DNA of 32,000 nucleotides from Xylanibacter ruminicola 23 (GCF_000025925.1 NC_014033.1:2100001-2132000); one strand, 5' to 3'; shown: positions 15,909 through 21,091, counted from the stretch's first letter. Numbers and translations: made by a program. Notes: generated by a model from the letters alone, not told the origin.

Positions 15909-15939
15909 CAAATATACGAAATATATCTGTAACGCCAAA
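15909..15939 (-). promoter_or_regulatory. Candidate Bacteroidetes-type promoter, probably the native promoter of the MBL-protease-ATPase operon, now separated from it by the IS21 insertion
   Basis: On the minus strand: TTTG (15939..15936), a 19-nt spacer, then TATATTTG (15916..15909). It lies just downstream of the terminator of the 205-aa gene. I found no other TAnnTTTG between it and ATG 12892 when the IS is ignored. Confidence 0.4.
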
Positions 15940-15975
15940 CAAAAACAAGAAAAAATAGAATTATTACCAAATATC

Positions 15976-16023
15976 TCAAAAATAACAAACCGCTAACCAA
16001 GCGTTTCTACTTAGTTAACGGTT
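15976..16023 (-). terminator. Rho-independent terminator of the 205-aa gene
   Basis: On the minus strand: AACCGTTAAC(TAAG)-loop-(CTTG)GTTAGCGGTT, a 10-14 bp stem with G-U pairs, followed by TTGTTATTTTTGA. It starts 30 nt after the stop at 16053. Confidence 0.55.
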
Positions 16024-16052: not shown

Positions 16053-16670
16053 CTATCTCTTGGCAAGAGGCAACGCTTCTTTCAACAAGCGCCTTTTCTC
16101 TTCATCGTATACCATTGAAATCTTACCAACCGGTTTTCCTCGGCCTTTTACATTTTCAAACAATTCTATCACAACATCTTCGGGCGAATAAATAATAAAG
16201 GCTCCTAACAATGTTCCATATACACATTTCAATTCCTTTCTAACAGGTTTTGGAGACACAAGAGACTTTAATCGAACTCTATCCTCATCGCGGTTTTTGA
16301 GGTTTTTCTTTTTCTTCATTTCAACAGCCAGGTAATTTGGCGCTTCACCTCTGCTTTGTATCAAAAGATCGCTCACCATATCTTTTGGCAGATGTTTACT
16401 ATTCTCGTATCTCTTAATTTCTCCATTACCCATACGATTATATTCTACATCTGCATAATACTTAGCAAAAAATGGTTTTTCTTTTCTCGCATCATATCTA
16501 CGCATAATGTTCTCCATATGAAGAGCCAATCTGGCGCAGATATTTCGTTCCGACACATCAAATTTGATATTCTCATAATCAAACTCATAAAGATACTGCA
16601 ATGCTGGTATCAATACCTCATCAAGAATAATCTCTTGTACGCTCTGTTCTCTAATTTTTCTTTCTTCCAT
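16053..16670 (-). CDS. 205-aa PD-(D/E)xK-like (restriction-endonuclease-fold) protein
   Basis: Motif arrangement: a helix with E (ERNICARLALHMEN), ...VSD-LLIQ..., ...YLAVEMKKKK (D...ExK). It shares its first 8 codons (MEERKIRE) and its leader with the 289-aa gene. Confidence 0.5.
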   Translation of the reverse strand: MEERKIREQSVQEIILDEVLIPALQYLYEFDYENIKFDVSERNICARLALHMENIMRRYDARKEKPFFAKYYADVEYNRMGNGEIKRYENSKHLPKDMVSDLLIQSRGEAPNYLAVEMKKKKNLKNRDEDRVRLKSLVSPKPVRKELKCVYGTLLGAFIIYSPEDVVIELFENVKGRGKPVGKISMVYDEEKRRLLKEALPLAKR

Positions 16671-16860
16671 AATTTTGATTTTTAGTTATTGAATATCAAT
16701 TATTCCTCACCTTTGCTTTTGTTAAGCAGGCCCCACTTGATTGATTGTATGAGAGTCATCCAAGTGGAGGCCTGCGTTATAACGAACTTTTTATATTGAT
16801 ATCTCACGACATCTCGTACCTTGATGCCACGAACCCGTCCCCTATCAGGATGGCGTGGTT
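16646..16860 (-). repeat. Leader repeat, copy A (~215 bp: upstream region plus first 25 nt of the 205-aa CDS)
   Basis: Aligns with 19843-20050 at roughly 90% or better identity by eye (about 11 substitutions and 2 short indels). Contains a 50-nt bulged hairpin at 16726-16775. Confidence 0.85.
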
Positions 16861-16936
16861 ACTGGGTTTATCTAAGTATTCCCATATCGCCACCTTTGGC
16901 AATTGAACCCTGTAAGCTTACAGAGTTCAACATATT

Positions 16937-17203
16937 CTACAGAGATTGCCCATCAAAAGGAACAAAATCTATATCATTAAAGTCACTGATAACGATCCTT
17001 ACATTGGGAGTATCAGAGTGTTCTTCCACAAAAGTGTTATGACCTTTTGTTCCAACATATTCTCTAACAGCATTGTCCATCACAGCATTGATTGCCGCAA
17101 TATTACTAGGATCACATGGCACATTAGCCCTAAAAACTGCAATCTTAAAACATTTGCCACTTTCTTGTTTGATAACAGTTTCAAATACATCAATTTTCTC
17201 CAT
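16937..17203 (-). CDS. Small 88-aa hypothetical protein
   Basis: ATG ORF, same strand, 100 nt downstream of the NdpA-like gene. No recognisable motif. Overlapping plus-strand ORFs look like antisense artefacts. Confidence 0.5.
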   Translation of the reverse strand: MEKIDVFETVIKQESGKCFKIAVFRANVPCDPSNIAAINAVMDNAVREYVGTKGHNTFVEEHSDTPNVRIVISDFNDIDFVPFDGQSL

Positions 17204-17303
17204 AGTTGTACAGTTTTAGTTAATAATTATTGTAATATAAAAAGCCGATTATATTGCTTTTTGTTTGTGAATTTCTTCGATTCTTTTTCAAGGTTATTAC
17301 ATT

Positions 17304-18329
17304 TTACTTCTCCTCCTTAAAATACAACTTATAGTATTTCATTCCTTTTTCTTCATCATAGCCTTTTTCCAGGAGATTCTCCCCACCTCGGATGCTGATG
17401 CCAAAATTATCATCCAGCTTGATGTTTGTCATATTGCCGAACGAGAGCTTCTTTAATGCCAGTGGTTCCGTTTTAAAATGGTCCACCACGCCATTACCAT
17501 CCTCTGTGATTGCATCTTGATTATACTTCAAAAAGCCCTGCGCGGTCTTTTCATCATCAAAAACACAGCCAACCATCTCTTTCAAGTCAAAATCGCCTCT
17601 TTTCAGAAAGTCCGTCAACCTATTGAGCATCATTGCCCTTTCATTCTTATCTACACTCTCTGTTAGCGACTTCACATAATCCTTACATACATTAATGGCC
17701 CTTTTCGTCTGATTATAACCATCATTTCTTGGAACCACATGCAAGAAGTCATCAATCCAGTATTTAGCTTCAGCACCACGTTTTGTCCTATCTACAACAG
17801 CCACAACATAACCATGTTCTTTTTCTATATTAAATATCAAGCAGCCTTTATCCAGTTTTTGCACATTTACCCCCATATCAAAATCAACAGACACATCGTC
17901 CTTTTCGTGCTTCACCTTCAAAAAACGTTCTTTATTCTCTGCTTTAAACAATCCTATCGCATCCACTAGTTTATGGTCTACTTCGCAGTTTTTAAACAGT
18001 ACCACAAAAAAATCACCTCCATTAATTTTTGGATGATTACTATGCTCATATAAACATCCTGCGATATCTATCGACTTCTCTACCAGAGTATTGTTGTCAT
18101 CAAAGATAGCAGAAACATGAGAATAAACCTCATTCATCTTTAACTCAGCCTCATGGTAGAAGTGGCAGAGAGCCTCAAGTTTAAATGGAGATAGGAAATA
18201 ATATTTTAGCATATTCTCCATCGCATCATCTATATACAACGAGTGGGAAGAGGTCTTTATCCCCTCTTCCGCCACTCTATTACCAACATAATGCACTATA
18301 GCGTTTGCTATTTTTATATTCTCATTCAT
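17304..18329 (-). CDS. Nucleoid-associated protein NdpA/YejK-like, 341 aa
   Basis: Resembles the YejK layout: N-terminal I-x-x-A-I-V-H-x-V-G-N, then GGDFFVVLF..., VNVQKLDKGCLIFN and AEAKYWIDDFLHV. This is pattern recognition from memory, not a search. Its start overlaps the upstream stop by 8 nt. Confidence 0.55.
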   Translation of the reverse strand: MNENIKIANAIVHYVGNRVAEEGIKTSSHSLYIDDAMENMLKYYFLSPFKLEALCHFYHEAELKMNEVYSHVSAIFDDNNTLVEKSIDIAGCLYEHSNHPKINGGDFFVVLFKNCEVDHKLVDAIGLFKAENKERFLKVKHEKDDVSVDFDMGVNVQKLDKGCLIFNIEKEHGYVVAVVDRTKRGAEAKYWIDDFLHVVPRNDGYNQTKRAINVCKDYVKSLTESVDKNERAMMLNRLTDFLKRGDFDLKEMVGCVFDDEKTAQGFLKYNQDAITEDGNGVVDHFKTEPLALKKLSFGNMTNIKLDDNFGISIRGGENLLEKGYDEEKGMKYYKLYFKEEK

Positions 18330-19011
18330 ATTTATTAAGATGATTTTTTAATACTCCAATTACCGCTTCCTTAATATCTTTCCACAAGCCATCCTCCTCA
18401 TTCTTGGTCATTTCTATATCCTGTCTTACGCAAAAATGAACAGTCTGCCCATAAGTAAAAAGATTCACAACCGTAGAACACAATAGAAGCATTGAAAACA
18501 GCCCAAAGAACAGAAGTGTAATATATATAAAGAAGTTTAATATTAAACAAACACATTCATTATCCACTGTCAGTTTCTGTTTCACAATCAAGTGAACACA
18601 AAACGCCAGTATCAAAGTAAAACATTGTATCAAAACCGATGATGCAAACACACAACTTGTGGTCTGAAAAAAACTCAGTTTCTGTTTGGTGCTCTTTAAT
18701 GGTTCCGACATACGTCCAATCAATTTCAAATCCGAAACGCCAATAATAAGCGCATACCCAGCAAGACTAAATCCTAGCAAACTAGGAAATGTTGATAGTA
18801 CGGTCGAGGCTAAATCATCTATATACTCAAATATCCGATTAGCCTCCCTGTTAAAAAAGAGCAAACATCCCCCAAACAGACAAGTTAAAATCAAACCAAA
18901 CTTAAACACAAAAGACTTTCGTATTTTGTCGATAGTATATCCATTACGGAATATCCCATCAATACTCACTTTGTGTCTCGTTCTCAGATCATTATCATCA
19001 TCCATTACCAT
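18322..19011 (-). CDS. 229-aa integral membrane protein (4 predicted TM helices)
   Basis: Hydrophobic segments are FVFKFGLILTCLFGGCLLFF, LSTFPSLLGFSLAGYALIIGV, SCVFASSVLIQCFTLILAFCVHLIV and VCLILNFFIYITLLFFGLFSMLLLCSTVVNLF. It overlaps both neighbouring genes (14 nt and 8 nt). Confidence 0.75.
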   Translation of the reverse strand: MVMDDDNDLRTRHKVSIDGIFRNGYTIDKIRKSFVFKFGLILTCLFGGCLLFFNREANRIFEYIDDLASTVLSTFPSLLGFSLAGYALIIGVSDLKLIGRMSEPLKSTKQKLSFFQTTSCVFASSVLIQCFTLILAFCVHLIVKQKLTVDNECVCLILNFFIYITLLFFGLFSMLLLCSTVVNLFTYGQTVHFCVRQDIEMTKNEEDGLWKDIKEAVIGVLKNHLNKYE

Positions 19012-19867
19012 TATTTCTAAATAAGTTCACCACTTGCGTCACTATATTCTTACGTAGAAGTGTCTCCTTGCATCTAATTGCAAGTGTTTTGGGGTGCCAA
19101 TCTGTAACAATCTTAGATGATACACCATCTTTTATAATTGAGGCCGTAACCTTTCCATAATGCTGAGCCAATCCGATAGCACCTTTAAGAATTCTCACAT
19201 TAACATCTATGTTACCGGTATTATCTGGAGTACCTTCTATTTTCAATCGTTTCATATGAGCAGCCTTCATCTGGTCATCCATAAATTCCATCGCTTCATC
19301 GCCATTGTCCTGATTACTATACGATACGTCAATCTCAAGTTTCTTTACGATATCAGCCTGGAATATCTGTTCAAAGTCCGACTCATCCTGTTCTTTTGTC
19401 ACCAAGAAATCCTCCCCTTCTTCTATAACCTGTGCTACAGCCTCATTTAAGAACTTCTCTACAGCATTTGCGCTGAAGCCACTTTTCATCACAAAAGCCA
19501 TTCGGTGTGCACCTGGTACAAAGAAGAAATCAGATTCCTTCAGATTGGGGAATGTATTTCTTGGAAGGTCAACACTCTCCACCTCCATATTCTCCAGATT
19601 AATCCAATCCTTGCCATCGATCACAGTATATGTTGAGATGCTTCCATACAATACGTCCCAGTTTCTGCCATTCACTTCAACCACATTATTAAACAGCGTA
19701 CGTAAAATCATATGCCTATCCCCTCTAATTGGGATCGAAACCTTTTCCTGGTTTATCTTCTTAATAATGTCAGTATAAGCAGCATCACCAGTACGGCTGT
19801 CCGACATCAACTTTACGTTAATCATCTGAACTTTATAGTTCAGTTCTCTAATTTTTCTTTCTTCCAT
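18998..19867 (-). CDS. 289-aa hypothetical soluble protein, first gene of the cassette
   Basis: ATG ORF with good coding texture. No motif recognised. Its N-terminus MEERKIRE and upstream ~190 bp are duplicated at the 205-aa gene. Confidence 0.75.
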   Translation of the reverse strand: MEERKIRELNYKVQMINVKLMSDSRTGDAAYTDIIKKINQEKVSIPIRGDRHMILRTLFNNVVEVNGRNWDVLYGSISTYTVIDGKDWINLENMEVESVDLPRNTFPNLKESDFFFVPGAHRMAFVMKSGFSANAVEKFLNEAVAQVIEEGEDFLVTKEQDESDFEQIFQADIVKKLEIDVSYSNQDNGDEAMEFMDDQMKAAHMKRLKIEGTPDNTGNIDVNVRILKGAIGLAQHYGKVTASIIKDGVSSKIVTDWHPKTLAIRCKETLLRKNIVTQVVNLFRNNGNG

Positions 19868-20050
19868 AATTTTGATTTTTAGTTATTGTACATAGATTAT
19901 TCCTCCCAGGTTTTGCTTTTGTTAAGCAGGCCCCACTTGAGTGATTGTATGAGAGTTATCCAAGTGGAGGCATGCGTTATGACAAACTTTTTATATTGAT
20001 ATCTCACGACATCTCGTACCTTTGATGTCACGTACCCGTCCCCTGGCAGG
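19843..20050 (-). repeat. Leader repeat, copy B
   Basis: See copy A. The hairpin is at 19926-19975. It starts ~30 nt downstream of the stop of the last polysaccharide-locus gene (20078). Confidence 0.85.
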
Positions 20051-20077
20051 GAGGCAGGGCGACATCCTAAATGCTGT

Positions 20078-21091
20078 TTACTCCAAGCACTGCTGCTTGT
20101 TGTCCTCATACCAATCTGCTAATGCTTCTTCGAATGTCCATTTCATTTGATAACCCGACGAAGCCATTTTCTTGCCACAGATGTTGGTTGAGATCTGCAG
20201 TTTCTTTACTCTTGCGGGACAGATGCCCATGGGGCTACCTACCATCTTAGCACAAACTGCCATTGGCATAATGATACTATTGGGGATATATGGCACTGAT
20301 TGCGACAGGCCTGTTACCTTTTTCATTGCCTTTACTATCTGCTCGATGGTATAGGCTGGTTCAAAGGTGCAGTTATAGATGTCAAACGATGTCTTACGCT
20401 CCTCTACATTCCATAGGATAAAGCGCACCAACTCTTTTACATACACACAGGCCTTGATGGTATCCTTACGACCAGGATAGGCAAATGTATGTTTGCGGAT
20501 GCCCCAATACAGTCGAGAGAAGTTGCCGTTTTCGCCACGACCGAATACCACACCTGGGCGAACGATTGTTAGTTTTCTGCCTTCACCCCCCTTCTGCCAT
20601 GCCATATGAATCTTCTCTGCCACCAGTTTCGATATACCATAAGGTGTGTTTGGTGTAGGCAGCGTATCCTCAGTCTTCAGTTGTTCAGAGGCGCCATATG
20701 GTGCTATGCTCGATGTAAACACCATATTCTTAATGCCATATTTCTCAGCAAATGCACACACGTTCTCAGCTCCACGGATATTCGTTTCAAAATACTCTAT
20801 ATCCTCGTGACCAGGTGTACGATGCACAGCTGCGAAGTTAAATATCACATCCTCTGCTGTCGGCGTAAAAGACAGTTCTCCTATTGGTTTCCTGATATCG
20901 CACTCTATATAAGTTGATCCCAGCTGCTCACCATCCCTAACCGCAGACTTATAGTTCTTCACTACAGGGTTAGGAGTTCCAGGCTTTACTATATCCAGAT
21001 TCCACACCTTGGCCTCTGGATGTACTTCGTTCAAAAGATTCGTCAGATGGGTACCAATAAAACCGGTACCGCCAGTAATAATATAATTCAT
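20078..21091 (-). CDS. NAD-dependent epimerase/dehydratase (extended SDR family)
   Basis: N-terminal GGTGFIG Rossmann motif and a YGISK (YxxxK) catalytic motif. 337 aa. Confidence 0.85.
   Translation of the reverse strand: MNYIITGGTGFIGTHLTNLLNEVHPEAKVWNLDIVKPGTPNPVVKNYKSAVRDGEQLGSTYIECDIRKPIGELSFTPTAEDVIFNFAAVHRTPGHEDIEYFETNIRGAENVCAFAEKYGIKNMVFTSSIAPYGASEQLKTEDTLPTPNTPYGISKLVAEKIHMAWQKGGEGRKLTIVRPGVVFGRGENGNFSRLYWGIRKHTFAYPGRKDTIKACVYVKELVRFILWNVEERKTSFDIYNCTFEPAYTIEQIVKAMKKVTGLSQSVPYIPNSIIMPMAVCAKMVGSPMGICPARVKKLQISTNICGKKMASSGYQMKWTFEEALADWYEDNKQQCLE

Follow-up and report, generated by a model that had tools for sequence, protein, structure and literature searches.

A modular leader repeated in front of unrelated candidate defence cassettes at the end of a polysaccharide locus in Xylanibacter ruminicola 23

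The 32,000-nt stretch of the Xylanibacter ruminicola 23 genome analysed here (NC_014033.1:2100001-2132000; hereafter the window, with positions counted from its first nucleotide) contains a leader sequence which is present twice in direct orientation behind a polysaccharide operon, each time in front of a different gene cassette, and sequence comparison with related contigs supported the view that this leader marks a site of exchange and stacking of defence genes. The sense strand of both leader copies and of all genes concerned is the minus strand, with the leader running from high to low coordinates, and the order on that strand is polysaccharide operon, leader copy B, a cassette of four tightly packed or overlapping genes (DUF4747, 4-TM, NA37 and 88-aa ORF, hereafter cassette B; TM, transmembrane; ORF, open reading frame), leader copy A, a single 205-aa gene and a terminator. 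Downstream of the terminator follow a canonical promoter, an intact IS21 element, which is unrelated to the repeat, and a Lamassu operon (LmuA-MBL, LmuA-protease, LmuC and LmuB; MBL, metallo-β-lactamase). The features are given below, with M1 to M4 being the modules of the leader.

20078-21091, minus strand: 337-aa NAD-dependent epimerase/dehydratase, last polysaccharide gene (Pfam PF01370, E = 1.1e-28)
20060-20069, minus strand: stub TAGGATGTCG, preceding M1 of copy B
19843-20055, minus strand: leader copy B (M1 20014-20055, M2 19926-20013, M3 19868-19925, M4 19843-19867)
19926-19975 (copy B) and 16726-16775 (copy A), minus strand: large hairpin of M2, 14 bp, bulged
18998-19867, minus strand: 289-aa DUF4747 protein starting with MEERKIRE, RexA-like cytoplasmic component (Pfam PF15931, E = 3.9e-32, and homologues)
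18322-19011, minus strand: 229-aa predicted membrane protein with four TM helices as counted in the sequence-only reading, overlapping both neighbours
17304-18329, minus strand: 341-aa nucleoid-associated protein of the NA37/NdpA family, third gene of cassette B (Pfam PF04245, E = 1.1e-29)
16937-17203, minus strand: 88-aa ORF, last gene of cassette B, in the slot of SIR2_2, SIR2+nSTAND or TIR_2 genes in relatives
16646-16860, minus strand: leader copy A (M1 16814-16860, M2 16726-16813, M3 16671-16725, M4 16646-16670)
16053-16670, minus strand: single-gene cassette for a 205-aa candidate PD-(D/E)xK-like protein starting with MEERKIRE (weak PADLOC match to PD-Lambda-3_A; predicted model)
15988-16023, minus strand: strong intrinsic terminator, 15-bp stem and T-run, 30 nt past the 205-aa gene
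15909-15943, minus strand: canonical Bacteroidetes promoter TTTG-N-TATATTTG, from which transcription would restart in the direction of the IS21-interrupted Lamassu operon

Global alignment of copy A with copy B gave 193 identities and 15 substitutions over 220 columns, with 12 gapped positions in four gap events, and a repeat search resolved the direct repeat into three collinear blocks (111 nt at 95%, 66 nt at 92% and 34 nt at 82% identity) spaced 3197-3201 nt apart. Searching the whole 3.62-Mb genome returned two copies, the second at E = 1.3e-77, and a third was found neither in this search nor with an nhmmer profile of the element or fuzzy matching of each module. The repeat was thus present in front of the two cassettes where the sequence-only reading had placed it, although the number of differences counted there by eye (about 11 substitutions and two indels) was too low, and the distance of copy B from the last polysaccharide gene is 22 nt, measured from the TAA at 20078-20080, rather than about 30 nt. 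The 25 nt at the 3′ end of both copies are identical (ATGGAAGAAAGAAAAATTAGAGAAC) and encode MEERKIRE, and BLASTP detected no significant similarity between the 205-aa and 289-aa proteins past residue 8, which bears out the earlier observation that two otherwise unrelated proteins have their first eight codons in common. The sequence upstream of the ATG was also correctly read as non-coding, with no minus-strand ORF common to both copies and a 70-aa ORF lying over copy B only. Copies A and B differ by about 8%, roughly the divergence among strains of their group, and both read TTGGAT, a private variant, at a place where TTGAAT is found in every other copy; used as a Campbell-type hybrid test, this variant and the private changes of each copy do not separate duplication, gene conversion and insertion. 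A dispersed repeat of the MITE (miniature inverted-repeat transposable element) or REP (repetitive extragenic palindrome) type was rejected, as each module occurs at only two sites in the genome and the ends of the element are not inverted repeats.

The leader is modular. M1 is an optional 5′ insert of about 46 nt (CCCTGCC..GGTACGA), and M2 is an almost invariant core spanning GAT(G/A)TCGTGAGATATCAATAT to GGGGCCTGC, which holds a 6-bp hairpin (GAUGUC/GAUAUC) and a large hairpin of 14 bp, interrupted by a single bulged base. No copy, even among those found via proteins, departs from the loop sequence ACTCTCATACAATCA of this large hairpin. M3 is an A-rich stretch running up to the ATG, and is unpaired in both minimum free energy and centroid folds, while M4 consists of the first 25 nt of the coding sequence, which belongs to the DUF4747 gene in copy B and to the 205-aa gene in copy A. 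Genes upstream of the leader stop 0-22 nt before M2 or M1, and in L042 (L-numbers denote the metagenome contigs and related loci compared with the window) the upstream gene uses the TGA within GTCGTGA as its stop codon. Three unrelated genes (MEERK.., MQNPK.. and METLG..) have their start codon at one and the same position after M3. M1 acts like a small separate insert, being located between a duplicated GATGTCG in copy B (20056-20069 and 20007-20013) and in L039, tandemly doubled in L052 (3090-3160), and detached from M2 in L042 (7140-7180) and L056 (140-190); the short form without M1 reads TAGGATGTCGTGAGA.

The predicted fold is stable (-54.9 kcal/mol), with z-scores against shuffled sequences of -4.0 for copy A and -2.3 for copy B, and the loop of the large hairpin is more conserved than its stem. 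None of the 21 base pairs was changed on both sides, and the covariation score of 0.055 compares with 0.056 for shuffles, the copies being too alike (93% mean column identity) to be informative. When read on the sense strand, and only there, one-sided stem changes are mostly wobble-compatible (five compatible, three disruptive); in L020 both arms of the hairpin are one base shorter, and copy B and L039 each have one stem mismatch. A known RNA family was rejected, since Rfam gave no match in the window at gathering score, and at E ≤ 5 only one irrelevant 15-bit match outside the element. The 70-aa ORF of copy B and a 53-aa ORF of copy A were rejected as coding, neither being common to both copies, as was a Met-Ser-stop mini-ORF at GATGTCGTGA, which is gone in the GATATCG variants. 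A 16-codon ORF on the plus strand (MRVIQVEACVITNFLY, 16749-16799), which starts in the hairpin loop, has three synonymous changes to one non-synonymous change between A and B; over all copies there are about 5-6 synonymous to 10-12 non-synonymous changes plus a frameshift in L020, and this ORF was therefore rejected as well.

Copies of the leader outside this genome were reached in two independent ways, via homologues of the 205-aa and DUF4747 proteins and via a scan of metagenome contigs with an exact two-part pattern. Which genes follow the unit elsewhere had been raised as a question in the sequence-only reading, and the answer is varied: about eleven further copies were present in rumen metagenome contigs, where what lies downstream falls into five or more kinds and six or more different genes were seen upstream. 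The leader is followed by the 205-aa gene, by DUF4747 (whole or as a 5′ stump), by a 33-aa ORF and Lamassu, by a membrane protein gene and RADAR, or by nothing. A repeat unique to this genome, which had been considered as pointing to a simple local duplication, is not compatible with these copies.

In L036, a capsular polysaccharide (CPS) epimerase gene is followed by the leader, the 205-aa gene (94.6% nucleotide identity to the window) and Gabija-like genes (AAA_15/OLD-TOPRIM, UvrD and phospholipase), while L020-25 and L054 are other CPS loci with the leader and a 205-aa homologue, and L056 has the leader, a 205-aa homologue and putAbiC. The window-type epimerase recurs in L039, where it precedes the leader, the 33-aa ORF, a 40-codon stump of the Lamassu MBL gene and other genes, and L038 has another CPS locus, the leader, the same 33-aa ORF and a complete Lamassu. 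This conserved 33-aa ORF (MQNPKFEFFRIKLNHKSGGFRTFR(D/N)FMVNNGNV) lies between the leader and the Lamassu MBL gene at 9476-9577 in L038 and 1407-1508 in L039. In L041/L040 the leader follows defence-like genes that are not part of a CPS locus, and precedes a 200-nt DUF4747 stump and an 81-aa homologue of the 88-aa ORF (L041a); further on, three ORFs are followed by a partial leader without hairpin (M3 only), a membrane protein gene, rdrA and rdrB (L041b). The 237-aa membrane protein has its ATG at the usual start position of the leader in spite of the missing hairpin, and the RADAR-like pair behind it (6582-12314 in L041) was recognised by PADLOC with E-values of 2.9e-18 for RdrA and 3.1e-27 for RdrB. 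L042 carries CPS genes, the core and then a second copy of about 65% similarity, and in L037 the CPS genes are followed by the M2 core plus TGCTTTTTTCTT, abutting a convergent gene, with the hairpin and T-run forming a terminator. The element is hence not only found at the flank of CPS loci, as it is internal to islands and between cassettes in window copy A, L041a and L041b.

Both a single-copy state (CPS genes, leader and 205-aa gene in L036, L054 and L020) and a stacked two-copy state occur, the latter in L052, and these unstacked and stacked states were found in different CPS backgrounds. L052 is a 3240-nt contig that was seen in eight samples and is 95.6% identical to window positions 16727-19939. 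Both contig ends fall within the leader and overlap by 13 nt in these eight samples, which is most likely an assembly break at the repeat, and may alternatively represent a circular form of the cassette.

The element is confined to one narrow, species-level lineage of rumen Prevotella. BLAST did not detect it in 200 species genomes of the family and 400 of the genus, where only weak matches of 25-45 nt to the A-rich start were obtained, and it was absent from 150 genus genomes searched with a covariance model, from genome contigs in two exact-pattern scans, and from plasmid and phage collections. An origin from a mobile element was rejected, as neither the plasmid nor the phage collections gave a match. 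Many Prevotella-like contigs have their first defence cassette right after the last polysaccharide gene and on the same strand, with or without the leader, and it often follows a DUF6016 cupin gene (among L020-25, L026-31, L032, L045-47 and L054); the 3′ end of the capsule locus thus has the appearance of a general hot spot for defence genes in this Prevotella-like group. Shortly before the polysaccharide operon, and co-oriented with it, are genes for an AAA_15/AAA_21 ATPase and a DUF4435 protein (L051 7030-9145, which is 39030-41145 in window numbering continued past the window end). We take this pair to resemble AriA/AriB of PARIS, and the capsule locus is therefore flanked by defence genes on both sides.

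DUF4747 is the domain of RexA and of the cytoplasmic components of the CarolAnn and Sbash exclusion systems, in which it is paired with a membrane protein (PMC7542560), and "DUF4747/CarolAnn" have been named together (PMC13373217). The 229-aa membrane protein of cassette B holds the position of RexB in Rex-like systems, and this order recurs in all homologous loci. The trio of DUF4747, membrane protein and NA37 genes is constant (window 16937-19867; L026-31, L049, L050, L053 and L052), with a variable fourth gene encoding SIR2_2 (1138 aa), SIR2_2+nSTAND (841 aa), TIR_2 (760 aa), a helix-turn-helix protein with a 699-aa protein, or the 88-aa ORF. Cassette B gives the impression of a RexAB-like sensor core to which exchangeable NADase-type effectors are attached; PADLOC contains no model of the DUF4747/membrane protein/NA37 cassette. 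The 205-aa protein had no match in Pfam and no sequence match in the PDB, and weakly matched PD-Lambda-3_A in PADLOC (E = 6.6e-7). Its AlphaFold model (pLDDT, the predicted local distance difference test score, 83.8) had the restriction endonuclease-like 3ijm as best fold match in the PDB (at only E = 5e-3; template modelling score 0.43 by query length and 0.58 by target length), and residues D101, E117 and K119 are invariant in 16 homologues.

The points at which homology ends differ from copy to copy. Downstream, at least five end points were seen, located after codon 8, at the ATG, after ATGGAA, after ..ACAAAAGC and after ..GCCTGCTT, while the upstream junction often begins at (T)AGGAT(G/A)TCGTGAGA, a few bases past different stop codons. 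Of the recombinase families, PF00589 (tyrosine recombinases) had five matches in the genome, the nearest at about 200 kb from the window, PF00239 (serine recombinases) had none, and no recombinase was called in the flanks of those related loci that have gene calls. Variable breakpoints, stumps and the lack of a nearby recombinase argue against a site-specific system, and would argue for general, partly illegitimate recombination in which the leader is the persistent left arm; we infer homologous recombination from the missing recombinase and the variable breakpoints only.

The MEERK start has a different history from the remainder of the leader. DUF4747 genes within a range of 64-90% identity to that of the window, among them those of 84-90% (L032-35, L049, L050 and L053) and 67% identity (L026-31), have unrelated upstream DNA and still start with MEERK(I/V)(K/R)ELNYK, and homologues at 50% identity have a basic N-terminus of the same length. 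The eight codons are therefore native to DUF4747, and not part of the leader as previously supposed. In the 205-aa family this start is found in the closest clade only (at least 74% identity), with distant members beginning about ten residues later, and homologues at 74-76% (L045-48) keep about 30 nt of the A-rich start region and lack the core. Going by this distribution, the 205-aa clade most likely acquired the eight codons from DUF4747, and an in-frame deletion fusing the 5′ end of DUF4747 to the 205-aa gene would supply the MEERK start. That rearrangements took place just downstream of the leader is evident from the 5′ stumps in L041 and L039, which may be leftovers of deletions or replacements of that general kind. 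Since the distal core is tied to the 3′ ends of polysaccharide loci, and can stand alone as terminator in L037, the element is a junction element and not purely a leader.

No TAnnTTTG box is present on the sense strand of either leader copy, which agrees with the sequence-only reading for that strand, whereas the opposite strand does contain such boxes. A -7-type box (TAATTTTG) lies on the plus strand across each start codon (16670-16677 and 19867-19874), pointing into the leader, and TACCTTTG is found on the opposite strand in copy B only (20017-20024); no -33 TTTG was seen at the right distance from the antisense TAATTTTG boxes, and -7-type boxes are about as numerous in the window as chance would give (43 found, 35 expected). 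On the sense strand, 19/20 upstream regions of related cassettes lack a strict -7 box, irrespective of the presence of the leader. Between 32000 and 16023 the minus strand holds no full promoter match, the promoter at 15943-15909 being the only one between 32000 and 2477, and going downstream from the polysaccharide operon no convincing terminator is encountered on this strand before the one at 16023-15988. The lack of a promoter match before this terminator fits co-transcription of the cassettes with the polysaccharide operon. Both copies have A at positions -3, -6, -12 and -13 (..CTAAAAATCAAAATT|ATG), which was experimentally found to raise translation initiation in a Bacteroidetes species without Shine-Dalgarno pairing, and efficient initiation regions in these bacteria are also unstructured around the start and have no additional AUG nearby (PMC6847099). 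By its sequence and predicted lack of structure, M3 fits this description of an efficient Bacteroidetes translation initiation region.

We assign a probability of roughly 0.55 to the reading that the leader is a junction and expression module specific to this lineage, serving promoterless cassettes which are read through from the capsule operon, and that it also acts as a homology anchor for their gain and loss. The repeat would then be the 5′ boundary module of defence cassettes that have no recognisable promoter and are stacked behind a capsule or polysaccharide operon, and the two copies in the window would represent two module-bearing cassettes in tandem, one RexAB-like (DUF4747/4-TM/NA37/88-aa) and one consisting of the 205-aa nuclease-like gene. 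Read-through from the polysaccharide operon would provide the cassette transcripts and M3 efficient translation starts, while 150-210 nt at ≥90% identity would be a RecA substrate for insertion, loss and replacement of cassettes. Insertion may proceed by a single crossover with a circle or by a double crossover split across the leader, and loss by the 3.2-kb deletion between A and B. Put together as a recombinase-free, integron-like platform, where the capsule-end junction provides read-through and an optimised start and RecA stacks, deletes or swaps the cassettes, this becomes a tentative and rather improbable proposal; if it holds, defence expression is tied to the expression of that capsule locus.

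Several results weigh against the module reading. The element is missing from the other genus and family species genomes searched and is therefore young, so that its spread could be recent and not selected. Compared with four-fold degenerate sites in the neighbouring gene, the leader was better conserved in two of four cases (95% versus 82%, and 90% versus 73%), and in the other two it was no better conserved than synonymous sites. There is no compensatory base-pair change, with covariation at the level of shuffled controls, and invariance of the core partly reflects selection by the search, as L037-L042 were found with a pattern fixing 25 core bases. The promoter pattern used is strict (two full matches in 32 kb) and of low sensitivity, which makes absence of a match weak evidence, and the leader sequence may hide a non-canonical promoter or be subject to RNA processing. 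Finally, the exact product of an A × B deletion at this locus was present on no contig. The earlier suggestion that alternative cassettes are exchanged or stacked at a conserved module hence gains from the varied contents and from the single and stacked states, and lacks a deletion or duplication isoform of the locus; the pattern is well documented, and the mechanism unproven.

A serious, though on balance unlikely, alternative is that the leader is a passive scar, i.e. lineage-specific intergenic DNA at the left flank of a defence hot spot, which was duplicated once when the DUF4747 cassette arrived, and is followed by different genes only because turnover happens just downstream. Its restriction to one species-level lineage, the lack of covariation and the two comparisons without excess conservation are all as expected for such DNA, as are the 5′ stumps still attached in L041a and L039, which random downstream breakpoints would leave, and the placement of defence genes behind CPS genes also without the leader (L026-31, L032 and L045-47). 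It does not readily explain why the element is also inside islands (window copy A, L041a and L041b), why three unrelated genes have their ATG at the same position, why neither the loop of the hairpin nor the GAT(G/A)TCGTGAGATATCAATAT block varies even among protein-found copies, or why M2 copies without any flank in common with the window are still 96-97% identical to it. Even if only a scar, the leader would be a clean natural case of direct-repeat cassette stacking, predicting the 3.2-kb deletion.

The stable fold, the higher conservation of the loop than of the stem, the preponderance of wobble-compatible one-sided changes, the paired deletion in L020 and the terminator formed in L037 would suit a cis-regulatory or processing RNA, or an operator, in which the M2 hairpin with its invariant 19-21-nt loop is recognised by an RNase, an RNA-binding protein, a trans-acting RNA or a DNA-binding regulator, and controls stability, attenuation or induction of abortive-infection cassettes. 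We consider this improbable, as Rfam matches are lacking at both thresholds, no pair changed on both sides and scores equal those of shuffles, the stem is mismatched in copy B and L039, L041b serves as junction without the hairpin, and no regulator gene travels with the element. Very improbable is a dedicated site-specific recombination site resembling integron attC/attI, which could account for co-oriented cassettes without recognisable promoter separated by a hairpin-forming repeat, for the frequent upstream junction at (T)AGGAT(G/A)TCGTGAGA, and for a contig (L052) which starts and ends inside the repeat. The varied downstream breakpoints, the distance to the nearest tyrosine recombinase together with the lack of serine recombinases and of any recombinase called at related loci, and the ≥90% identity of the repeats, which differs from attC, all contradict it, as does the absence of R″/R′ core motifs in attC order, and the 13-nt end overlap of L052 fits an assembly break.

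Integron arrays consist of promoterless, co-oriented cassettes behind one upstream promoter, are punctuated by hairpin-forming attC repeats, and contain many defence genes in sedentary integrons. The attC site is located 3′ of each ORF and is conserved in structure and diverse in sequence, with a fixed crossover at G/TT of the R′ core. The leader system shares with such arrays, and with clusters of attC sites lacking integron integrases (CALINs), the co-oriented stacked cassettes, the hairpin repeats, and flanking repeats which allow for cassette loss. In contrast, no IntI or other recombinase is located nearby, the repeat is 5′ of the cassettes and takes in the start of translation and the opening codons, the copies share 88-97% sequence identity where attC sites are diverse, and breakpoints vary. 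An integron cassette array was accordingly rejected, with core motifs out of attC order as a further reason: the arrangement is integron-like in outline, and fails every defining feature of an integron.

Defence islands turn over quickly, and where mobile-element genes are lacking, the route by which their genes are inserted and expressed is mostly unknown. Here, a short non-coding module accompanies unrelated defence cassettes, namely a RexAB-like system, a small nuclease-like gene, Lamassu and RADAR. If read-through is true, surface polysaccharide and intracellular defence, as two layers of phage resistance, would be linked both transcriptionally and genetically, and a plain 200-nt homology block would do the job of integron attC sites. 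Switching of capsule loci takes place by homologous recombination in conserved flanks, and Neisseria minimal mobile elements are likewise alternative cassettes exchanged by homologous recombination in conserved flanks without mobility genes (PMC3082526). The genes on either side of the leader vary, polysaccharide genes upstream and defence genes downstream; unlike in these systems, the anchor is a non-coding module of 150-210 nt in place of conserved flanking genes, and is also present inside the array, resulting in direct repeats. For cassette B only, the resemblance also extends to RexAB, CarolAnn and Sbash in the DUF4747 protein followed by a membrane protein in the RexB position, but this cassette always adds NA37/NdpA and a variable fourth gene. 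"Putative mobile promoters" are highly similar upstream regions before non-homologous genes, within and between related genomes (PMC3575422), and resemble the leader as an upstream region reused before unrelated genes; the leader differs in having no recognisable promoter, and in carrying a junction hairpin, an initiation region and, in two families, eight codons. This reuse of upstream regions (PMC3575422) and the exchange of cassettes by homologous recombination at fixed sites (PMC3082526) are the closest known phenomena, while what is new is the content of the reused piece, with its junction hairpin, translation start and sometimes eight codons, and its location at the end of capsule operons in front of several defence systems.

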